NCBI GenBank assembly: GCA_000146465.1
Contig: CP001947.1
DNA: 64,000 bases
Reading direction: 5' to 3' (one strand)
A program made the position numbers and the translations under genes. The notes below the pieces were generated by a model, which ran no database searches, was not told the DNA's origin, and was given only the letters and a program-made list of their open reading frames with translations. Of the stretch, positions 11,385-59,962 are shown one piece after another; position 1 is the stretch's first letter; every line of letters starts with the position of its first letter.

Positions 11385-11455
11385 TGCATCATCCGAGAAT
11401 CGAACTCGGGCCAGCCAGATGGCAACCGGCTATTATACCACTAAACTAATGATGC
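11385..11455 (-). tRNA. tRNA-Gly (anticodon GCC)
   Basis: Reverse complement: GCATCAT TA GTTTAGTGGTATAATA GCCGG TTGCCAT CTGGC TGGC CCGAG TTCGATT CTCGG ATGATGC A. The 7-bp acceptor stem is perfect. The anticodon stem GCCGG/CTGGC carries a loop TTGCCAT with GCC at positions 34-36. The T-arm is CCGAG/CTCGG with a GTTCGATTC loop. The D-loop AGTGGTA is conserved. Total 71 nt, no encoded CCA. Confidence 0.9.
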
Positions 11456-43072: not shown

Positions 43073-43230
43073 ATGGATGGGGCCAGAGGATAGGCTTGAA
43101 TACCCCTTTTCTGAAGGGACCTGAGATTTGAAGAGAGCTGACCAGTGAGGTTTTAGAGGGATTCTAGGATAGGCAGAAAAAAAACAGCCAATTACTCCAA
43201 GAAAAGATTAAGGAGATCTGCAATATACTT

Positions 43231-43288
43231 GGGCATAGAAAAGAAGATGGAGTCAATAACGAGGTGTGTTTCTATTGGCATAGAAAAT
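43231..43288. repeat. two copies of GGCATAGAAAA in the promoter region of the secreted Gly-rich gene
   Basis: The first copy is GGGCATAGAAAAGAAG at about 43231. The second is TGGCATAGAAAATTAT at about 43277. The secreted-protein gene ATG is at 43302. Confidence 0.3.
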
Positions 43289-43301
43289 TATAAATAATCA
43301 G

Positions 43302-43601
43302 ATGAATTCAAGATCAATGAAGCTTTCTAGTGTGATGTTTCTAGCTCTGTCTTCTCTTGTCTCTGCTGGCTGGTGGGGATCGTCTTCTACAACCGAAGGA
43401 GGTGACAGCAATAGCTCACAGTTATTTGGAATGGGAAGTCAAGGGGAGGGGGGAAATCCCAGTACAGATGGAAAGAGTAACCTGGTTGAGGAGTCGGAAG
43501 GACATAACGACGAAGGTAACGAAGGAGGAGAAGGATCCAAGAACAACCCTGGAAAGAACGAAAACTCATCAGGCTTCTGGGAGAGCAAAACACAAGACTA
43601 A
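43302..43601 (+). CDS. small secreted Gly/Glu/Asn/Ser-rich protein (99 aa)
   Basis: A signal peptide MKLSSVMFLALSSLVSAGW is followed by a low-complexity acidic region (GGDSNSSQLFGMGSQGEGGNPSTDG...EGNEGGEGSKNNPGKNENSS). Confidence 0.45.
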   Translation: MNSRSMKLSSVMFLALSSLVSAGWWGSSSTTEGGDSNSSQLFGMGSQGEGGNPSTDGKSNLVEESEGHNDEGNEGGEGSKNNPGKNENSSGFWESKTQD

Positions 43602-43721
43602 GTCCCTGTGGCAGACATTTCTTGCTCTTGAACATCCTCAAGTGAAGAAACAATAAAGCTGTTGTATTTTTGTCATATTATTTATCTGGGATATTTTTAG
43701 GTAAAACATATAAGGTACCCC

Positions 43722-43854
43722 ATGAAGTTTTCTCGGATAGTTATGATGGGGCCGCCAGGATGTGGAAAGGGAACCCAGTCTAAGCTTATATCTGAAAGAT
43801 ATGGAATTCCCCACGTGAGCTCTGGAGACATTATACGGGAAGAGATGATGAAGA
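43722..43854 (+). CDS. ADK: adenylate kinase, exon 1
   Basis: The P-loop is [10 protein letters not shown] in [44 protein letters not shown]. The exon ends at a GTAAGT donor. Confidence 0.8.
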
Positions 43855-43877
43855 GTAAGTTAGGGTAGTAATTTTAG
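43855..43877 (+). other. 23-nt spliceosomal intron (gtaagttagggtagtaattttag) in adenylate kinase, phase 1
   Basis: The donor is GTAAGT and the acceptor is TTTTAG, with a TAAT element 6-9 nt upstream of the AG. Length is 23, which is 2 mod 3 and exactly reconciles the exon-1 and exon-2 frames. An unspliced read-through hits a stop 4 codons later. Confidence 0.7.
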
Positions 43878-44278
43878 ACACCAAGGAAGCAGAAATAGTT
43901 AGAGAGATTGTTAACTCAGGAGGATTGGCTCCTAACGAAGTTGTGAATAAACTGGTGCTGAAGAAGATTCGAAGCATGGATAGGTATATTCTCGATGGAT
44001 ACCCCAGAAGAACCGACCAGGCAGAAATGCTGGGAGACAGTGTTGACCTAGTGATATTTATTGATGTGGACAAGGATACATGCATTCATAGGATCTGCAA
44101 GCGAAATCATGGAAGGGATGATGATGAGGAGGAGGTTGGAAGAAAGAGATATGACGTCTACACGAAGGAAACAATGCCTATACTTGAGCTGTATAAGAGC
44201 TATGGAAAGATAGTAAGGGTGGATGGGAATGGTTCTCCCGAGACCATATTTTCTAAGATCTGCGGAATTATTGAATGA
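43878..44278 (+). CDS. ADK: adenylate kinase, exon 2
   Basis: The sequence continues NTKEAEIVREIVNSGGLAPNEVVNKLVLKKI...GYPRRTDQAEML...RYDVYTKETMPILELY, covering the NMP-binding and LID/core regions typical of adenylate kinase. The frame is open back to 43859. Confidence 0.8.
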
Positions 44279-44400
44279 TATATGCGATTAAATGGCATTT
44301 GGTGTGTCTTTGAATAGTTGTTGTGTCTTGAAGGTTGAGTGAAGAACTCCTTAAAAAAAGGAGCAAATAAAAGCAAAAACAAGCCCTGAAGAGAGAGGGG

Positions 44401-46638
44401 ATGAAGAAGAGGGGATGTTCGGAAGTCTCTTCCTTTGAAAGACACATGGACACAGTTCTTTCTGTCCCGGATATCCTAGGAAGAAAGGAAGTCTTGAGGC
44501 CTGTAGTGTTCTCGCACAGGGACGACTCTGAAGATGGGTTGGAAGCAATGAATGACAGAGAAGTGTTTATGGCAGCTCTGAGACGAAGGATGAACCTTCT
44601 ACTTGGTCCCAGAGTGGTTGAAAAAGCAGATTTGGATATTTACAGAGATGATAATGTCTGGATGAATGAGATTAGAATGAGCTCGGAAGAAAGGAAGGAA
44701 GAACTCTGTGGGGAAAAGAGAGTAGCTTTTGTTTCTGTGGACCCGGACCTTTATGGGATTGTTGCAAACGAAATTCCTGGGTCAGGAACGAAGGACGATA
44801 GCTTTTTGTATGTTAGAAGAAGAATAGTGGGTCTTGAGAGCCGGGTGGAGTTTTTGTTTAGAAGAAGCTGGGGGATAATGGAGAGTAAAAAGGTATTATC
44901 GCTTGCTTCGCTCGATAGCTTAGTGAGGAAGGATGGATTTCAAGGTATTGTGATGGTGGATGGAAAGTCAGTGGTTTTGAGCAAGGCTGTAGAAGAGGTG
45001 AACATTGGACTTCGAAACAGGAATGCAGGGATTATGGAAAACAATATCCGGGGCACTTTTACTATCCGAGTAGACGGACTGGATGGGTCGGGAGAGAAGC
45101 TCCAGAGTGTGAAGCTGGTATGTGGATATAGAGAAAGTGACTTCCAAGTTCGATTTGGATACCATAAGATGTATAAGGTAATGCCTATGGAGAGACTGAT
45201 GAACTACTATCTGGACAACAAATGCATTCCTCTTGGAAAACTTCTCGAAGAGCTTGTCTGCATCTCGCAACCTGGGAGTCTAAGAGACAATTGTTTAAGA
45301 TTCATAGAGTTGAAGGCCAGCTTGTTTTTTGGAGAAGCCGAGATATCTCCTTATGATGTTGGGAGCTCACTCTTGTTTTTTCTTTGGATGTTTGGAGGAA
45401 GTCGATTGTCGTTGATAACAAACAAGATCATAGAGTACATCGAGTATGTACTTAGTGAGCTAGACATCTGCCGAAGCTCTACCAAGGACTTTTTGTTCCT
45501 TCATGAGACATGTATCTTCATAAATAAGATCATTCTACTGGAAAGACAGGCAGGAGAGATTGGAAGCCATAGAAAGCCAAGTATTGGGGATATGAAGAAA
45601 GATATGCAGGTTGGAGTTGGGCCATCGGATTGGTACGAATGGGACGATTTTTGCCCAAAAGAGTCATGCACTGCCCTTGCCTATTACAAGGCAGCAGATT
45701 TCTCAGAAAACCTTGTACTCAGGCTAAGAAGAATAGGCCACCAAGAGAAGATGCATGAAGAAGATGCCAAGCCCATTGTCAAAAGCACAATTGAGGATCT
45801 TCTTCTTGAAAGCCTTAGGATCTCAAAAGCCGAGTGTATTAGAAGCCGATCTCCGGGACTAAGAAAGCTTTTTGGGGTGTATCGAAGAATGAATAAGATT
45901 TCTCAGAAAGGCCTTGCTAGATTTGTGGATAGGGACAAGACAAGTAATCTCATTATCTCTATTCTTGAAGAGAATACTGTGTTTGACTGTGAGACTCTCC
46001 TCCTGTGTACCATTTTGAAGGATATTTCACAGATTGTTCCAGTAAGAGTGTCTGTTCTCGATAAGGCACTAGTTAAATGCATAAGTGAGGTTGTGGAAAT
46101 GTTTGGAAAAAGGTTGAGGCGGCTTCTTCGAAAGGGCGAAGAAGATGTTGAAAATGCATTTGAACCAATAAGACTGTTCTTTAAAAGACTTCGGTATCTG
46201 AACTCGACTATACACGAGGAGATATTCAAGAGCGACCTGCATCATGCCATAGAAGAGGAGTGCTTCTACCGACTCCGAAAGATATCTCGAGATGTCAGGG
46301 GAGGGCTTAGACAGCTGGAACTCTGCAGGAAATTGCATGAGGAGCATCTTCGGATGTTTAACTCAATGAATCGAGAGATCGAGCTTGGATACTGTCTGGA
46401 AGAAAAGAAAGCCTTCATGAGGCTTTATGATGTTAGAAAGATAAAAAGGATGCTGAGAAATCCAGAGATTCTAGAGAAAGAGATATTAAAGATGATTGGG
46501 GAAGGGACATTTGCAGACGATAATGTACGCAACAGATACAAGCTGTATCTGTACGAGTGCATTAAGGAGAACGCCCGGGTGCTTTCCAAGGATAGATATG
46601 ATGAGACAATGATGTCTGTAAATAAATGCTTCATATGA
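44401..46638 (+). CDS. large hypothetical protein (745 aa), helical, no recognisable domain
   Basis: A long ORF with coherent codon usage. Could be a diverged tethering or exocyst-like helical-bundle protein, but nothing diagnostic. Confidence 0.5.
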   Translation: MKKRGCSEVSSFERHMDTVLSVPDILGRKEVLRPVVFSHRDDSEDGLEAMNDREVFMAALRRRMNLLLGPRVVEKADLDIYRDDNVWMNEIRMSSEERKEELCGEKRVAFVSVDPDLYGIVANEIPGSGTKDDSFLYVRRRIVGLESRVEFLFRRSWGIMESKKVLSLASLDSLVRKDGFQGIVMVDGKSVVLSKAVEEVNIGLRNRNAGIMENNIRGTFTIRVDGLDGSGEKLQSVKLVCGYRESDFQVRFGYHKMYKVMPMERLMNYYLDNKCIPLGKLLEELVCISQPGSLRDNCLRFIELKASLFFGEAEISPYDVGSSLLFFLWMFGGSRLSLITNKIIEYIEYVLSELDICRSSTKDFLFLHETCIFINKIILLERQAGEIGSHRKPSIGDMKKDMQVGVGPSDWYEWDDFCPKESCTALAYYKAADFSENLVLRLRRIGHQEKMHEEDAKPIVKSTIEDLLLESLRISKAECIRSRSPGLRKLFGVYRRMNKISQKGLARFVDRDKTSNLIISILEENTVFDCETLLLCTILKDISQIVPVRVSVLDKALVKCISEVVEMFGKRLRRLLRKGEEDVENAFEPIRLFFKRLRYLNSTIHEEIFKSDLHHAIEEECFYRLRKISRDVRGGLRQLELCRKLHEEHLRMFNSMNREIELGYCLEEKKAFMRLYDVRKIKRMLRNPEILEKEILKMIGEGTFADDNVRNRYKLYLYECIKENARVLSKDRYDETMMSVNKCFI

Positions 46639-53797: not shown

Positions 53798-55276
53798 ATG
53801 AATTTAGGATGGCTACTGAAGATTCCAATGCGAAAACATTCAAACAGGAAAATAATTGTATATGAAAATAGCATGGCTTCGTTTTACTCTAGGACGTTTG
53901 AAATAATTGAAGAGCATATTTCTACCATATCCAATAATGAACATCATAGAGATGGATTAGTAGAGTATATAGAAATGTTATCATATTTTCAAATCTCTAA
54001 TGAAGATCATGAGAAAAAAGAAGAAATTAATAGACAAAGGCAAAGCTTACTTAAGAAATTTAGATCCCTAACCTTAATTAGTATTTCAAAAGTAGAAAAA
54101 GACAATAGGAAAATATTGAAATCTTATCATGGAGTATTACATCTTTTAGATTTGATTGGTTTTGGTGTAAATCCTTATGAAATGGTTTTAAAAAAATGGT
54201 TAAACACCAATTGTATGATAATTAGTGATGTAGAAAGACATGCCATAAGAGGAAATTTCGAAAAAGTGATCGAAGCATATCCCTATTTAAACGAGGCTAT
54301 TAATAATTATTTAAACTTAAGGAAGACGTCAGGAAATGAATACAGGAAATTATTTGCGTCTTGGAAGATCAAATATTTTAAAATTATTCCCAATAATTTA
54401 AAGGAAATTCTTTTTCATAATATTAACGGGGATGGTATTGACTGGATTGATCATATTTGCTATAAATCGTTTTGTATGAACACACAAAGGAATGGGATCG
54501 ATCTTATAAATAGGGAAGATGAAATCGGAATGATATTAACACATAATTATGATGCACTAATAGAACGTTCTAAAGGATGGATTAGACTAGTATTATTGTT
54601 CGTTTGCCCTCATACAAAATTTGATTTATTTCCAAGAGCATTTGAATCTATCGGGAAATTCCTATATTTATCAGATTATCGCTTATCTTTGAGATTTTTT
54701 TCGTACACAGAGAAACTAATCTTATACTTTAATCACTTTTCCTGTAAGTTTTCTAAAAGTCTTTCGGATTTAGAATTCTTGGTTGAGTATTCCAAAAAAA
54801 ATAATATTAATGGAAATTCTTTGTTAAAAGAGTACTGCCAAAATCTTCTTTCTAATCAAGAGTATTATAATCTTTTTTATGTTATATCTAAATATGAGCT
54901 CTGCGATATAAACATAAATTCCGAGTTTATAGAATTCTGTATTAGAAATACAACAATACTAACTGAAAACTTCACTAAAACATCGTATGGAATTTTTATT
55001 GGAAACTTTAGGAGATTTCTTAGTGGAATAAAAGTTGGTGAAGGTGAAATTATAGCATTGATAAATTCAGATTATTTTTCAGCTCTAGATAGTAGAACAT
55101 TTGAAATAATACTAGAGAACAGATGCATTACTGTGAACATGCTTTATAAGCTTTTAGAAGGAATGTTAAATGTGGAAAGAAAAGGGAAGTCTAATCCCAT
55201 ATTGAAAAGCAAAAAAGCTTTAGTTCTCAATAAGTTAGCGGAATCTACAGGTCTCGGGAAGGACATATCAATTTAA
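53798..55276 (+). CDS. hypothetical protein (492 aa), AT-rich orphan ORF divergent from the TALE homeobox gene
   Basis: The ATG was verified. The composition is Asn/Ile/Lys/Phe/Tyr-rich, reflecting local GC of roughly 28 percent. No recognisable domain; a search for a homeodomain helix-3 was negative. Confidence 0.45.
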   Translation: MNLGWLLKIPMRKHSNRKIIVYENSMASFYSRTFEIIEEHISTISNNEHHRDGLVEYIEMLSYFQISNEDHEKKEEINRQRQSLLKKFRSLTLISISKVEKDNRKILKSYHGVLHLLDLIGFGVNPYEMVLKKWLNTNCMIISDVERHAIRGNFEKVIEAYPYLNEAINNYLNLRKTSGNEYRKLFASWKIKYFKIIPNNLKEILFHNINGDGIDWIDHICYKSFCMNTQRNGIDLINREDEIGMILTHNYDALIERSKGWIRLVLLFVCPHTKFDLFPRAFESIGKFLYLSDYRLSLRFFSYTEKLILYFNHFSCKFSKSLSDLEFLVEYSKKNNINGNSLLKEYCQNLLSNQEYYNLFYVISKYELCDININSEFIEFCIRNTTILTENFTKTSYGIFIGNFRRFLSGIKVGEGEIIALINSDYFSALDSRTFEIILENRCITVNMLYKLLEGMLNVERKGKSNPILKSKKALVLNKLAESTGLGKDISI

Positions 55277-58550: not shown

Positions 58551-59873
58551 ATGGAGACTGCAAGGAAGATAAGGAGACACAAAATACTTGCATATGCACT
58601 GACTGCGGTGGAGGCCATGGGGCTGTCTGTGGTGGTTAAACAGGCCGTCAGGAATCCGCTTAGAGTTCTTTTGAATCCACCGAAGGGCCTTGTGCGAGGT
58701 CTGTGTTCCATCCCTACTATTATGCTATGGATTGCCATATACATATACCTTTCGGGGAAAGTTGCACAAGAAGCAGGAAGGCCTCGGACGGTCATCTTCT
58801 TCTATCATCTTACCTCACAGATAATGTTTTTGGGGTACCTTTCCAAGCCGGGTTCAGATGTTGGAATGAATAGTAGATGGGTCACGCTTATACCAACAAA
58901 CGGATGTTCTGTATACAGCGTGGCTCTTTCCATATCCTCGGCAACACTCCAAACATATATTGAGGAGATTCTATGGATGAAGCCAAGATACACACGAGTT
59001 AGAGGATTGTTCAACTACATGGGAAGAAGTATAGGAGTGATGGTGCGAGACATGTTTTATCTTTGTATTGGCAGCGAGTTCATGGCAATAGGTGCTCTTA
59101 CGATGTGCTTGGTAGTCTCGAAGACTCTGTTTCCATGGTCACGCCTTGGACCTTTCTGGTTATTCCAGGGAACAGCTTGGAGGATGTCTGGGGGGTTTTT
59201 GGCTGCCAACATCTCTACTGCTGCTTATTTTCTTCTGATGAGTGCCATTGATAGGCTTCTAACTTACAACATGTCACTGATGAATCTTGGCTTGGGCGAC
59301 TACTGCTGTAACGAGGAGGAGAGCATCAACACCTCAAGACTGAGGTTTTTCCAGATATCCGAGCTTTCAATGAAATATCCCGAGGTTTTCAAAAAGGTGG
59401 CAAGATCAAACAAAGCTGTTTCGTCCCTTGGGCTGTATGTCCGTAGAGAAGAAAGAGAGATTTTAAAGATCATGGAAACGATGAGGAGAGAGAGGGAAAC
59501 ACTTGAGTCCCGAATGTGGTTTTCTGTTCCCCAGATCACCCAACCTCTAGACAAACCAAAGGCGTTGGTTGTTCAAAGAAAAGTTCAGTTTGTAAAGAGA
59601 ATAAGATCGTATAATTTCATTGAGATTCTTGCATCCAGGATCGTATACTTCTTTAAGATACGTATTTTGATTAATAGATACAAGGGCACCAGAAGACCGT
59701 TCCTTCTGGTAAAGAGCTTTATGAAGTTTCTAGAGAAATATAGAAGGGACTACCTACTTCTCAAGGATCTTGACGAGACGTTTGAGGCCTCGATGAAGAA
59801 TCTGCACAACGAAATCTCCAACACCGAGGAGGTGATTGGGATTGGTCTGGAGTCGGAGCTGTTCTGTAAGTAA
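58551..59873 (+). CDS. hypothetical membrane protein (440 aa) with a C-terminal charged/coiled region
   Basis: The ATG was verified. Several hydrophobic helices lie in the first 230 aa. No family recognised. Confidence 0.4.
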   Translation: METARKIRRHKILAYALTAVEAMGLSVVVKQAVRNPLRVLLNPPKGLVRGLCSIPTIMLWIAIYIYLSGKVAQEAGRPRTVIFFYHLTSQIMFLGYLSKPGSDVGMNSRWVTLIPTNGCSVYSVALSISSATLQTYIEEILWMKPRYTRVRGLFNYMGRSIGVMVRDMFYLCIGSEFMAIGALTMCLVVSKTLFPWSRLGPFWLFQGTAWRMSGGFLAANISTAAYFLLMSAIDRLLTYNMSLMNLGLGDYCCNEEESINTSRLRFFQISELSMKYPEVFKKVARSNKAVSSLGLYVRREEREILKIMETMRRERETLESRMWFSVPQITQPLDKPKALVVQRKVQFVKRIRSYNFIEILASRIVYFFKIRILINRYKGTRRPFLLVKSFMKFLEKYRRDYLLLKDLDETFEASMKNLHNEISNTEEVIGIGLESELFCK

Positions 59874-59962
59874 CCTCGGGGCTGTTAATAAAGTTTTGGA
59901 TCTTCTAGACTACTGTAAAGGTTTCATAGGAATGATAATTGAGACACAAGGATAAACAAACA

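Follow-up and report, generated by a model that had tools for sequence, protein, structure and literature searches.

A probable 23-nucleotide spliceosomal intron in the adenylate kinase gene of Encephalitozoon intestinalis

In Encephalitozoon intestinalis ATCC 50506 the gene for adenylate kinase, found on chromosome VI at positions 43722-44278 (plus strand) of the 64,000-nucleotide stretch of contig CP001947.1 analysed here ("the window"), raises a simple question: its two coding parts lie in different reading frames, set apart by the 23 nucleotides GTAAGTTAGGGTAGTAATTTTAG (43855-43877), so how can a single enzyme be encoded by them? The answer favoured here, to which a probability of about 0.93 is assigned, is that a true spliceosomal intron, U2-type with GT-AG ends, splits the gene. 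This interpretation, put forward in a first-pass annotation made from the letters of the window, is supported by four lines of evidence, namely the protein already deposited for the gene, the conservation of the element in four Encephalitozoon species, the existence of a 24-nucleotide version in Ordospora pajunii, and the purifying selection acting on the sequence upstream of the element.

Rebuilding of the gene confirmed to the base that the two parts are in different frames and that the element lies between them. Exon 1 (43722-43854, plus strand) opens with the ATG at 43722 and spans 133 nucleotides, that is 44 codons and the first base of codon 45, including the P-loop GPPGCGKGT; exon 2 (43878-44278, plus strand) comprises 401 nucleotides including the TGA stop, and completes codon 45 with its two remaining bases and supplies all that follows, namely the nucleoside monophosphate (NMP)-binding and core domains. 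When the message is read unspliced, the exon-1 frame continues through SKLG to a TAG at 43867-43869, giving a peptide of 48 residues, and the exon-2 frame is blocked upstream by the TAA contained in GTAAGT (43856-43858). Removal of the 23 nucleotides restores the frame: the intron is in phase 1 and splits an AAC codon as A|AC (Asn45), as had been proposed at first, and the resulting coding sequence of 534 nucleotides specifies 177 amino acids, with EEMMKNTKEAEIVR as the junction-spanning peptide and with a product identical to the GenBank entry ADM11665.2. The putative intron (43855-43877, plus strand) begins with the 5' splice site GTAAGT (43855-43860), complementary to the 5' end of U1, and ends with TAATTTTAG (43869-43877), in which a presumed branch-point region (TAAT) is fused to the AG of the 3' splice site (43876-43877).

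The spliced product is a well-behaved member of its family. The 177-residue protein covers positions 1-150 of the 151 of the Pfam model ADK (PF00406) in an ungapped alignment scoring 132.5 bits (E = 1.8e-38; gathering cut-off 26.8 bits), and each exon is recognized by itself, exon 1 over model positions 1-37 (E = 1.5e-12) and exon 2 over positions 39-150 (E = 6.6e-20). The P-loop, conforming to GxPGxGKGT, occupies residues 10-18, within exon 1, and is unchanged in all microsporidian orthologues. Among solved structures the closest are 3cm0 and those of AK1, 1z83 and 3adk (E values from 3.5e-31 to 3e-30); their alignment too is ungapped across the junction, bearing out the initial expectation that the spliced form would align with canonical adenylate kinases, and neither bacterial nor solved enzymes show an insertion or deletion at this point. 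With these short-type enzymes, as with the UMP-CMP kinases, the E. intestinalis protein shares the P-loop motif, the NMP-binding region and the lack of a long LID insertion: the Pfam search with PF05191, the family describing that insertion, gave no match, and a gap opens in the alignment where the long bacterial enzymes carry a LID of about 30 residues. At 177 residues it is slightly shorter than its solved short-type homologues (186-199). The sequence assigns the product to the short-type (AK1-like, LID-less) adenylate kinases; the UMP-CMP kinase 1tev scores nearly as high (98.3 bits) as 3cm0 (111.6 bits), and the preferred substrate may be AMP or UMP/CMP.

The closest homologues of the window protein are the adenylate kinases of the other Encephalitozoon species, and the orthologous loci of E. 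cuniculi EcunIII-L (L001), E. romaleae (L002) and E. hellem (L003) were compared with the window. The order of genes is the same in all four, with a gene of 850-870 amino acids and a small open reading frame upstream and a gene of 725-745 amino acids downstream. In each of the three a 23-nucleotide element follows exactly 133 nucleotides of coding sequence and interrupts the same codon in phase 1; the orthologue alignment called for in the first-pass annotation returned the same intron throughout, and the orthologues of E. cuniculi GB-M1 (CAD25425.2, NP_585821.2, UniProt Q8SVC2, KAD_ENCCU), E. hellem (XP_003887414.2) and E. romaleae agree with the window in the length of exon 1, in the intron and its ends and in a 177-residue product, at 71-76% protein identity. 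The four introns, all of 23 nucleotides, consist of GTAAGT, a core of eight nucleotides and TAATTTTAG, the core being TAGGGTAG in E. intestinalis, TTGATTTA in E. hellem, TTGACTTA in E. romaleae and CTGGTTTG in E. cuniculi; in O. pajunii the corresponding 24-nucleotide element reads GTAAGT, GGCAGCAAA and TAATTTTAG. The first six and the last nine bases, 15 splice-signal bases in all, are thus invariant in five species, and the core differs at one to five of its eight positions between Encephalitozoon pairs (at four or five between the window and the three orthologues). The junction codon specifies Asn in E. intestinalis and E. hellem (AAC) and in E. romaleae (AAT), and Ser in E. cuniculi (AGC).

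Selection on the flanking exons was estimated by the Nei-Gojobori method as the ratio of nonsynonymous to synonymous divergence (dN/dS). For exon 1 the ratio is 0.03-0.09 in five of the six species pairs, at a synonymous divergence (dS) of about 0.8-2.2, and 0.29 in the sixth, the close pair E. romaleae/E. hellem, in which changes are very few; for exon 2 it is 0.08-0.20. Since such low ratios are reached where synonymous divergence is nearly saturated, exon 1 is translated. Moreover, the invariance of the 15 splice-signal bases where synonymous sites approach saturation agrees with a published report of stronger conservation in the introns of Encephalitozoon than at synonymous sites (PMC4355639). 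The sequence, the frames, the conservation, the selection and the identity with deposited gene models are all directly established.

The intron and the spliced adenylate kinase model are, indeed, already known, being present in GenBank, RefSeq and UniProt. The 177-residue product is residue-for-residue identical to ADM11665.2, "putative adenylate kinase [E. intestinalis ATCC 50506]", and recurs as KAL7345559.1, KAL7347507.1 and KAL7349467.1, from three further E. intestinalis assemblies, as well as in UniRef; the three KAL entries probably stem from the three additional isolates of PMC12697097. The gene is on record, with the same product, on five E. intestinalis contigs. A look-up of contigs encoding exactly the 177-residue protein returned no gene record, in spite of the presence of the sequence in the protein collection. 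The E. cuniculi GB-M1 reference is the full 177-residue spliced form, and the E. hellem RefSeq model has been revised from 136 residues (XP_003887414.1) to 177 (XP_003887414.2). The E. hellem orthologue is also found under inconsistent names and models, as a 177-residue "adenylate kinase", as a 177-residue "uridylate kinase" (UTX43357.1) and as a protein of 188 residues (WEL38820.1), the last of which starts at an upstream ATG lying inside a conserved, promoter-like ATATTTT element (see below).

Some of these records lend themselves to a different explanation, namely that the gene is decaying or fragmented, a frameshifting insertion having severed the P-loop part so that a truncated C-terminal protein is made at most. 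N-terminally truncated genes have been called at 136 residues (EcunIII-L and E. romaleae), 123 residues (AGE95769.1) and 117 residues (a Logan call), and the GB-M1 record bears the title "similarity to adenylate kinase (fragment)". The truncated models, however, already contain the 23-nucleotide intron, because they span 434 nucleotides for 136 codons: in EcunIII-L (KMV65961.1) and in E. romaleae SJ-2008 the call runs from 3001 to 3434 of the respective locus (L001 and L002), intron included, takes as its start an internal Met located three codons ahead of the intron and lacks the P-loop exon, and in both loci the ATG at position 2879, preceded by the conserved CCCC, gives 177 residues. Decay is equally hard to reconcile with the strong purifying selection seen in exon 1, where synonymous divergence is nearly saturated, with the invariance of the 23-nucleotide length and of both splice signals in four species, and with the conserved CCCC and ATATTTT in front of the upstream ATG; furthermore, it is established for the family that an adenylate kinase devoid of its P-loop would be inactive. 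We regard this explanation as very improbable; the truncated calls are better taken as annotation to be corrected, which appears still to be outstanding for E. romaleae.

Slightly less probable still is programmed ribosomal frameshifting or bypassing on an unspliced mRNA, by which a shift between 43859 and 43866 would replace Asn45 with an insertion of seven or eight residues. The eight nucleotides between the TAA at 43856-43858 and the TAG at 43867-43869 could in principle link the two frames, the product still matches ADK at 121.1 bits, and the short introns of Encephalitozoon are reportedly spliced poorly (PMC3629993). That score is, however, 11 bits below the 132.5 bits of the spliced form, and no insertion is seen at the junction in adenylate kinases from bacteria or of solved structure; what is conserved in the element are the splice signals, with no slippery or codon-structured sequence and with a core that varies freely. 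A further comparison comes from O. pajunii, whose adenylate kinase (KAH9411266.1, XP_060276723.1) is annotated as a continuous open reading frame of 187 residues. At positions 1134-1157 of its locus (L007, JACCJH010000010.1), and at the same coordinates of two further loci (L005 and L006), the 24 nucleotides GTAAGTGGCAGCAAATAATTTTAG follow 133 nucleotides of coding sequence, at the same position and in the same phase as the Encephalitozoon intron; being a multiple of three and free of in-frame stops, they can be read through, adding the eight residues GKWQQIIL. Here recoding is unneeded, the two sides being in one frame, yet GTAAGT and TAATTTTAG are kept. That the exons should share a frame when the element measures 24 nucleotides, and lie in different frames when it measures 23, is the pattern predicted by excision and not by translational recoding.

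As to the O. pajunii sequence itself, without GTAAGTGGCAGCAAATAATTTTAG the protein has 179 residues, is colinear with the enzymes of Encephalitozoon and of bacteria, and scores 134.5 bits on ADK instead of 122.3; the element is probably an unannotated intron that is translated through in the current model. Judged from the shared position, phase and signals, the adenylate kinase intron predates the split between Ordospora and Encephalitozoon. Neither the 179-residue O. pajunii form nor the 177-residue E. romaleae form was found in the protein collection. Farther afield, an AT-rich microsporidian represented in the Logan assembly of SRR489792 has an intron-less adenylate kinase (L004, 35-586) of 183 residues, 46% identical; a genuine eight-residue insertion lies near the Encephalitozoon intron site in that enzyme, without GTAAGT or TAATTTTAG and in a segment of uncertain alignment. 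A metagenome scan for further Ordospora-like loci, made with a microsporidian adenylate kinase alignment, yielded adenylate kinases of bacteria alone, none above 39% identity.

The last explanation, an assembly or sequencing artefact in which an error of one or two nucleotides disrupts a continuous open reading frame, has nothing in its favour beyond the general possibility raised in the first-pass annotation and can be given practically no weight, since an independent Logan assembly of ERR13302946 is identical to the window over the 2131 nucleotides from 43148 to 45278, element included, the same product is encoded on five E. intestinalis contigs, the same 23-nucleotide element occurs in three other species, and a correction of one or two nucleotides leaves the stops at 43856-43858, 43867-43869 and 43870-43872.

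The reading of the element as a spliceosomal intron is not free of difficulties of its own. That the E. intestinalis transcript is actually spliced, which nucleotide serves as branch point and how efficient the reaction is are all inferred; in particular, TAATTTTAG is invariant near the 3' splice site in five species, and its correspondence to the published branch motif, like the position of the branch adenosine, is presumed. Only eight nucleotides separate the 5' splice site from the presumed branch motif, and a length of 23 nucleotides stands at the physical minimum for an intron of this kind. Short Encephalitozoon introns have been reported to be inefficiently spliced (PMC3629993): of the 37 introns of E. 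cuniculi, 30 have fewer than 50% of their transcripts spliced (PMC3629993), and for the short ones the mean lies below 20% (Whelan et al. 2019, PMC6349667). RNA-seq has confirmed every annotated intron of this species (Grisdale et al. 2013, PMC3629993), and the adenylate kinase intron would be among those 37 validated introns, judging from its presence in the reference annotation.

Within the window the combination of signals is singular. The composite motif formed by GTAAGT, 8-12 nucleotides of any sequence and TAATTTTAG occurs once in the 64 kb, as against 0.00 occurrences expected from 100 dinucleotide shuffles; TAATTTTAG itself occurs once (43869-43877), and among the 32 GT[AG]AGT sites on both strands, only that at 43855 has TAAT followed by AG at intron distance, apart from one site that was rejected. 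The earlier statement that this is the only intron in an otherwise intron-free window is consistent with these scans of both strands, its basis being motifs. The rejected site is a 28-nucleotide stretch at 59866-59893 (plus strand), GTAAGT...TTAATAAAG (GTAAGTAACCTCGGGGCTGTTAATAAAG in full), which overlaps the stop codon of Eint_060680; the protein deposited for that gene is the unspliced product of 440 residues, and removal of the stretch adds 17 residues before a stop, without joining the next gene. Also discarded was the use of an internal AG of the adenylate kinase element as acceptor, which would define a 14-nucleotide "intron" and restore the frame as well: this AG is missing in the other four species, and no room is left for a branch site. 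A further stretch, GTAAGTTTTCTAAAAGTCTTTCGGATTTAG at 54744-54773 (plus strand), inside the Nup85-like gene Eint_060660, is a 30-nucleotide in-frame GT...AG sequence with a perfect GTAAGT; it is counted as coding in the deposited Eint_060660 protein of 492 residues, does not finish in TAAT(T)TTTAG as genuine introns do, and is probably a chance match.

If the adenylate kinase element is an intron, its removal would follow ordinary U2-type splicing by the reduced spliceosome of Encephalitozoon. The pre-mRNA would begin close to the CCCC, a short way before the ATG at 43722; the 5' end of the U1 snRNA, ACUUAC, would pair with GUAAGU at 43855-43860, in line with the ACUUAC(C) described for the Encephalitozoon U1 snRNA (PMC5499648), and U2 would recognize UAAU, the putative branch region within the invariant UAAUUUUAG (43869-43877), whose branch adenosine would lie only about 6-7 nucleotides from the 3' AG. 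Two transesterifications would then join A43854 to A43878 and create the AAC codon of Asn45, and the spliced mRNA would be translated into the 177-residue short-type adenylate kinase with its P-loop encoded by exon 1. As the unspliced mRNA gives only the 48-residue peptide, no active enzyme would be made unless splicing took place; to judge from E. cuniculi, many of the adenylate kinase transcripts are probably unproductive.

It may be asked whether the intron has been kept in both Ordospora and Encephalitozoon because its retention is used, throttling the output of the enzyme in Encephalitozoon and acting like an exitron in O. pajunii, where the enzyme would come in two full-length forms that differ by the presence of GKWQQIIL in the NMP-binding region. 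This idea seems unlikely, the evidence for the exitron part being limited to the existence of the O. pajunii element and its annotation as coding.

Upstream of the gene two short elements may contribute to transcription. A CCCC motif stands directly before the ATG (43718-43721, plus strand) and is kept in the four Encephalitozoon orthologues; an AT-rich, TATA-like ATATTTT (43691-43697, plus strand) lies about 25-30 nucleotides upstream of the ATG, in columns that are invariant in the four-species DNA alignment. The 5' ends of Encephalitozoon transcripts are associated with CCC/GGG-like signals, and TATA-like signals have been described as well (PMC5499648), with which the arrangement in front of the ATG at 43722 agrees; by analogy, CCCC would represent the CCC-like transcription-initiation signal of Encephalitozoon genes, and a promoter role is suggested for ATATTTT by the same study. 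Past the other end of the gene, ATTAAATGG (44287-44295), 9-17 nucleotides beyond the stop codon, is kept in the four Encephalitozoon species amid variable intergenic bases, and may be a polyadenylation-like (ATTAAA) signal or a piece of the promoter of the next gene.

The gene is flanked by Eint_060550 and Eint_060580, and neighbouring open reading frames of the window were identified by exact-sequence look-ups as these two and as Eint_060660 and Eint_060680. Between Eint_060550 and the adenylate kinase gene lies a small open reading frame (43302-43601, plus strand), with a hydrophobic, signal-peptide-like N-terminus and a body rich in Gly, Ser, Asn and Glu; in the exact look-up neither its 99-residue version nor the 94-residue version starting at the second Met found a match, and the other three Encephalitozoon species have gene calls of 126-141 amino acids at the syntenic position. 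The GC content of the window, 42.1%, is in keeping with the published genome figure for E. intestinalis, 41.4%. A tRNA-Gly (GCC) at 11385-11455 (minus strand) is the sole Rfam/ARAGORN match in the 64 kb, the Rfam scan of which gave no snRNA or snoRNA family above threshold.

How unusual is such an intron? According to the first-pass annotation, the introns of Encephalitozoon are mostly confined to ribosomal-protein genes, which would make one in a metabolic gene noteworthy; this view is outdated, as it fits the 2001 annotation only, and the intron is already part of the reference annotations. Katinka 2001 reportedly belongs to the literature describing ultra-short Encephalitozoon introns, Lee et al. 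2010 are said to have added non-ribosomal introns to the set, and about 20 of the roughly 36 introns have been reported from 2010 onwards, ribosomal-protein genes not being their main location. Like those added in 2010, the window intron does not lie near the start codon, and its host gene is not ribosomal. Its size, placed from the beginning at the minimum of the class, agrees with the published ranges: 36 spliceosomal introns of 23-76 bp are credited to each of four Encephalitozoon genomes (PMC4313915), and a range of 22-76 nucleotides, together with a strict branch-point motif, is given elsewhere (PMC3629993). With the ultra-short class it shares the GT-AG ends, the strict GTAAGT, a presumed branch motif beside the 3' AG and the floor of 23 nucleotides, and nothing of substance separates it from that class. 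The long microsporidian introns (about 76 nucleotides) of the poly-A-binding protein and S23 genes (PMC6349667) depend on the same spliceosome and the same type of 5' splice site, but are about three times longer, contain conserved internal stem-loops besides a hyper-extended pairing between branch point and U2, and reach about 80% splicing, whereas the short class to which the window intron belongs averages less than 20%. A full-text literature search on adenylate kinase introns in Encephalitozoon and microsporidia returned irrelevant papers only.

What is mildly new here are the annotation corrections in related genomes (O. pajunii, E. romaleae and EcunIII-L) and the age of the intron. The ultra-short introns of Encephalitozoon, about 36 in number, are a model for minimal spliceosomes, and the adenylate kinase intron is an ordinary member of this set; the finding matters little beyond showing that a real 23-nucleotide intron can be located from raw sequence.

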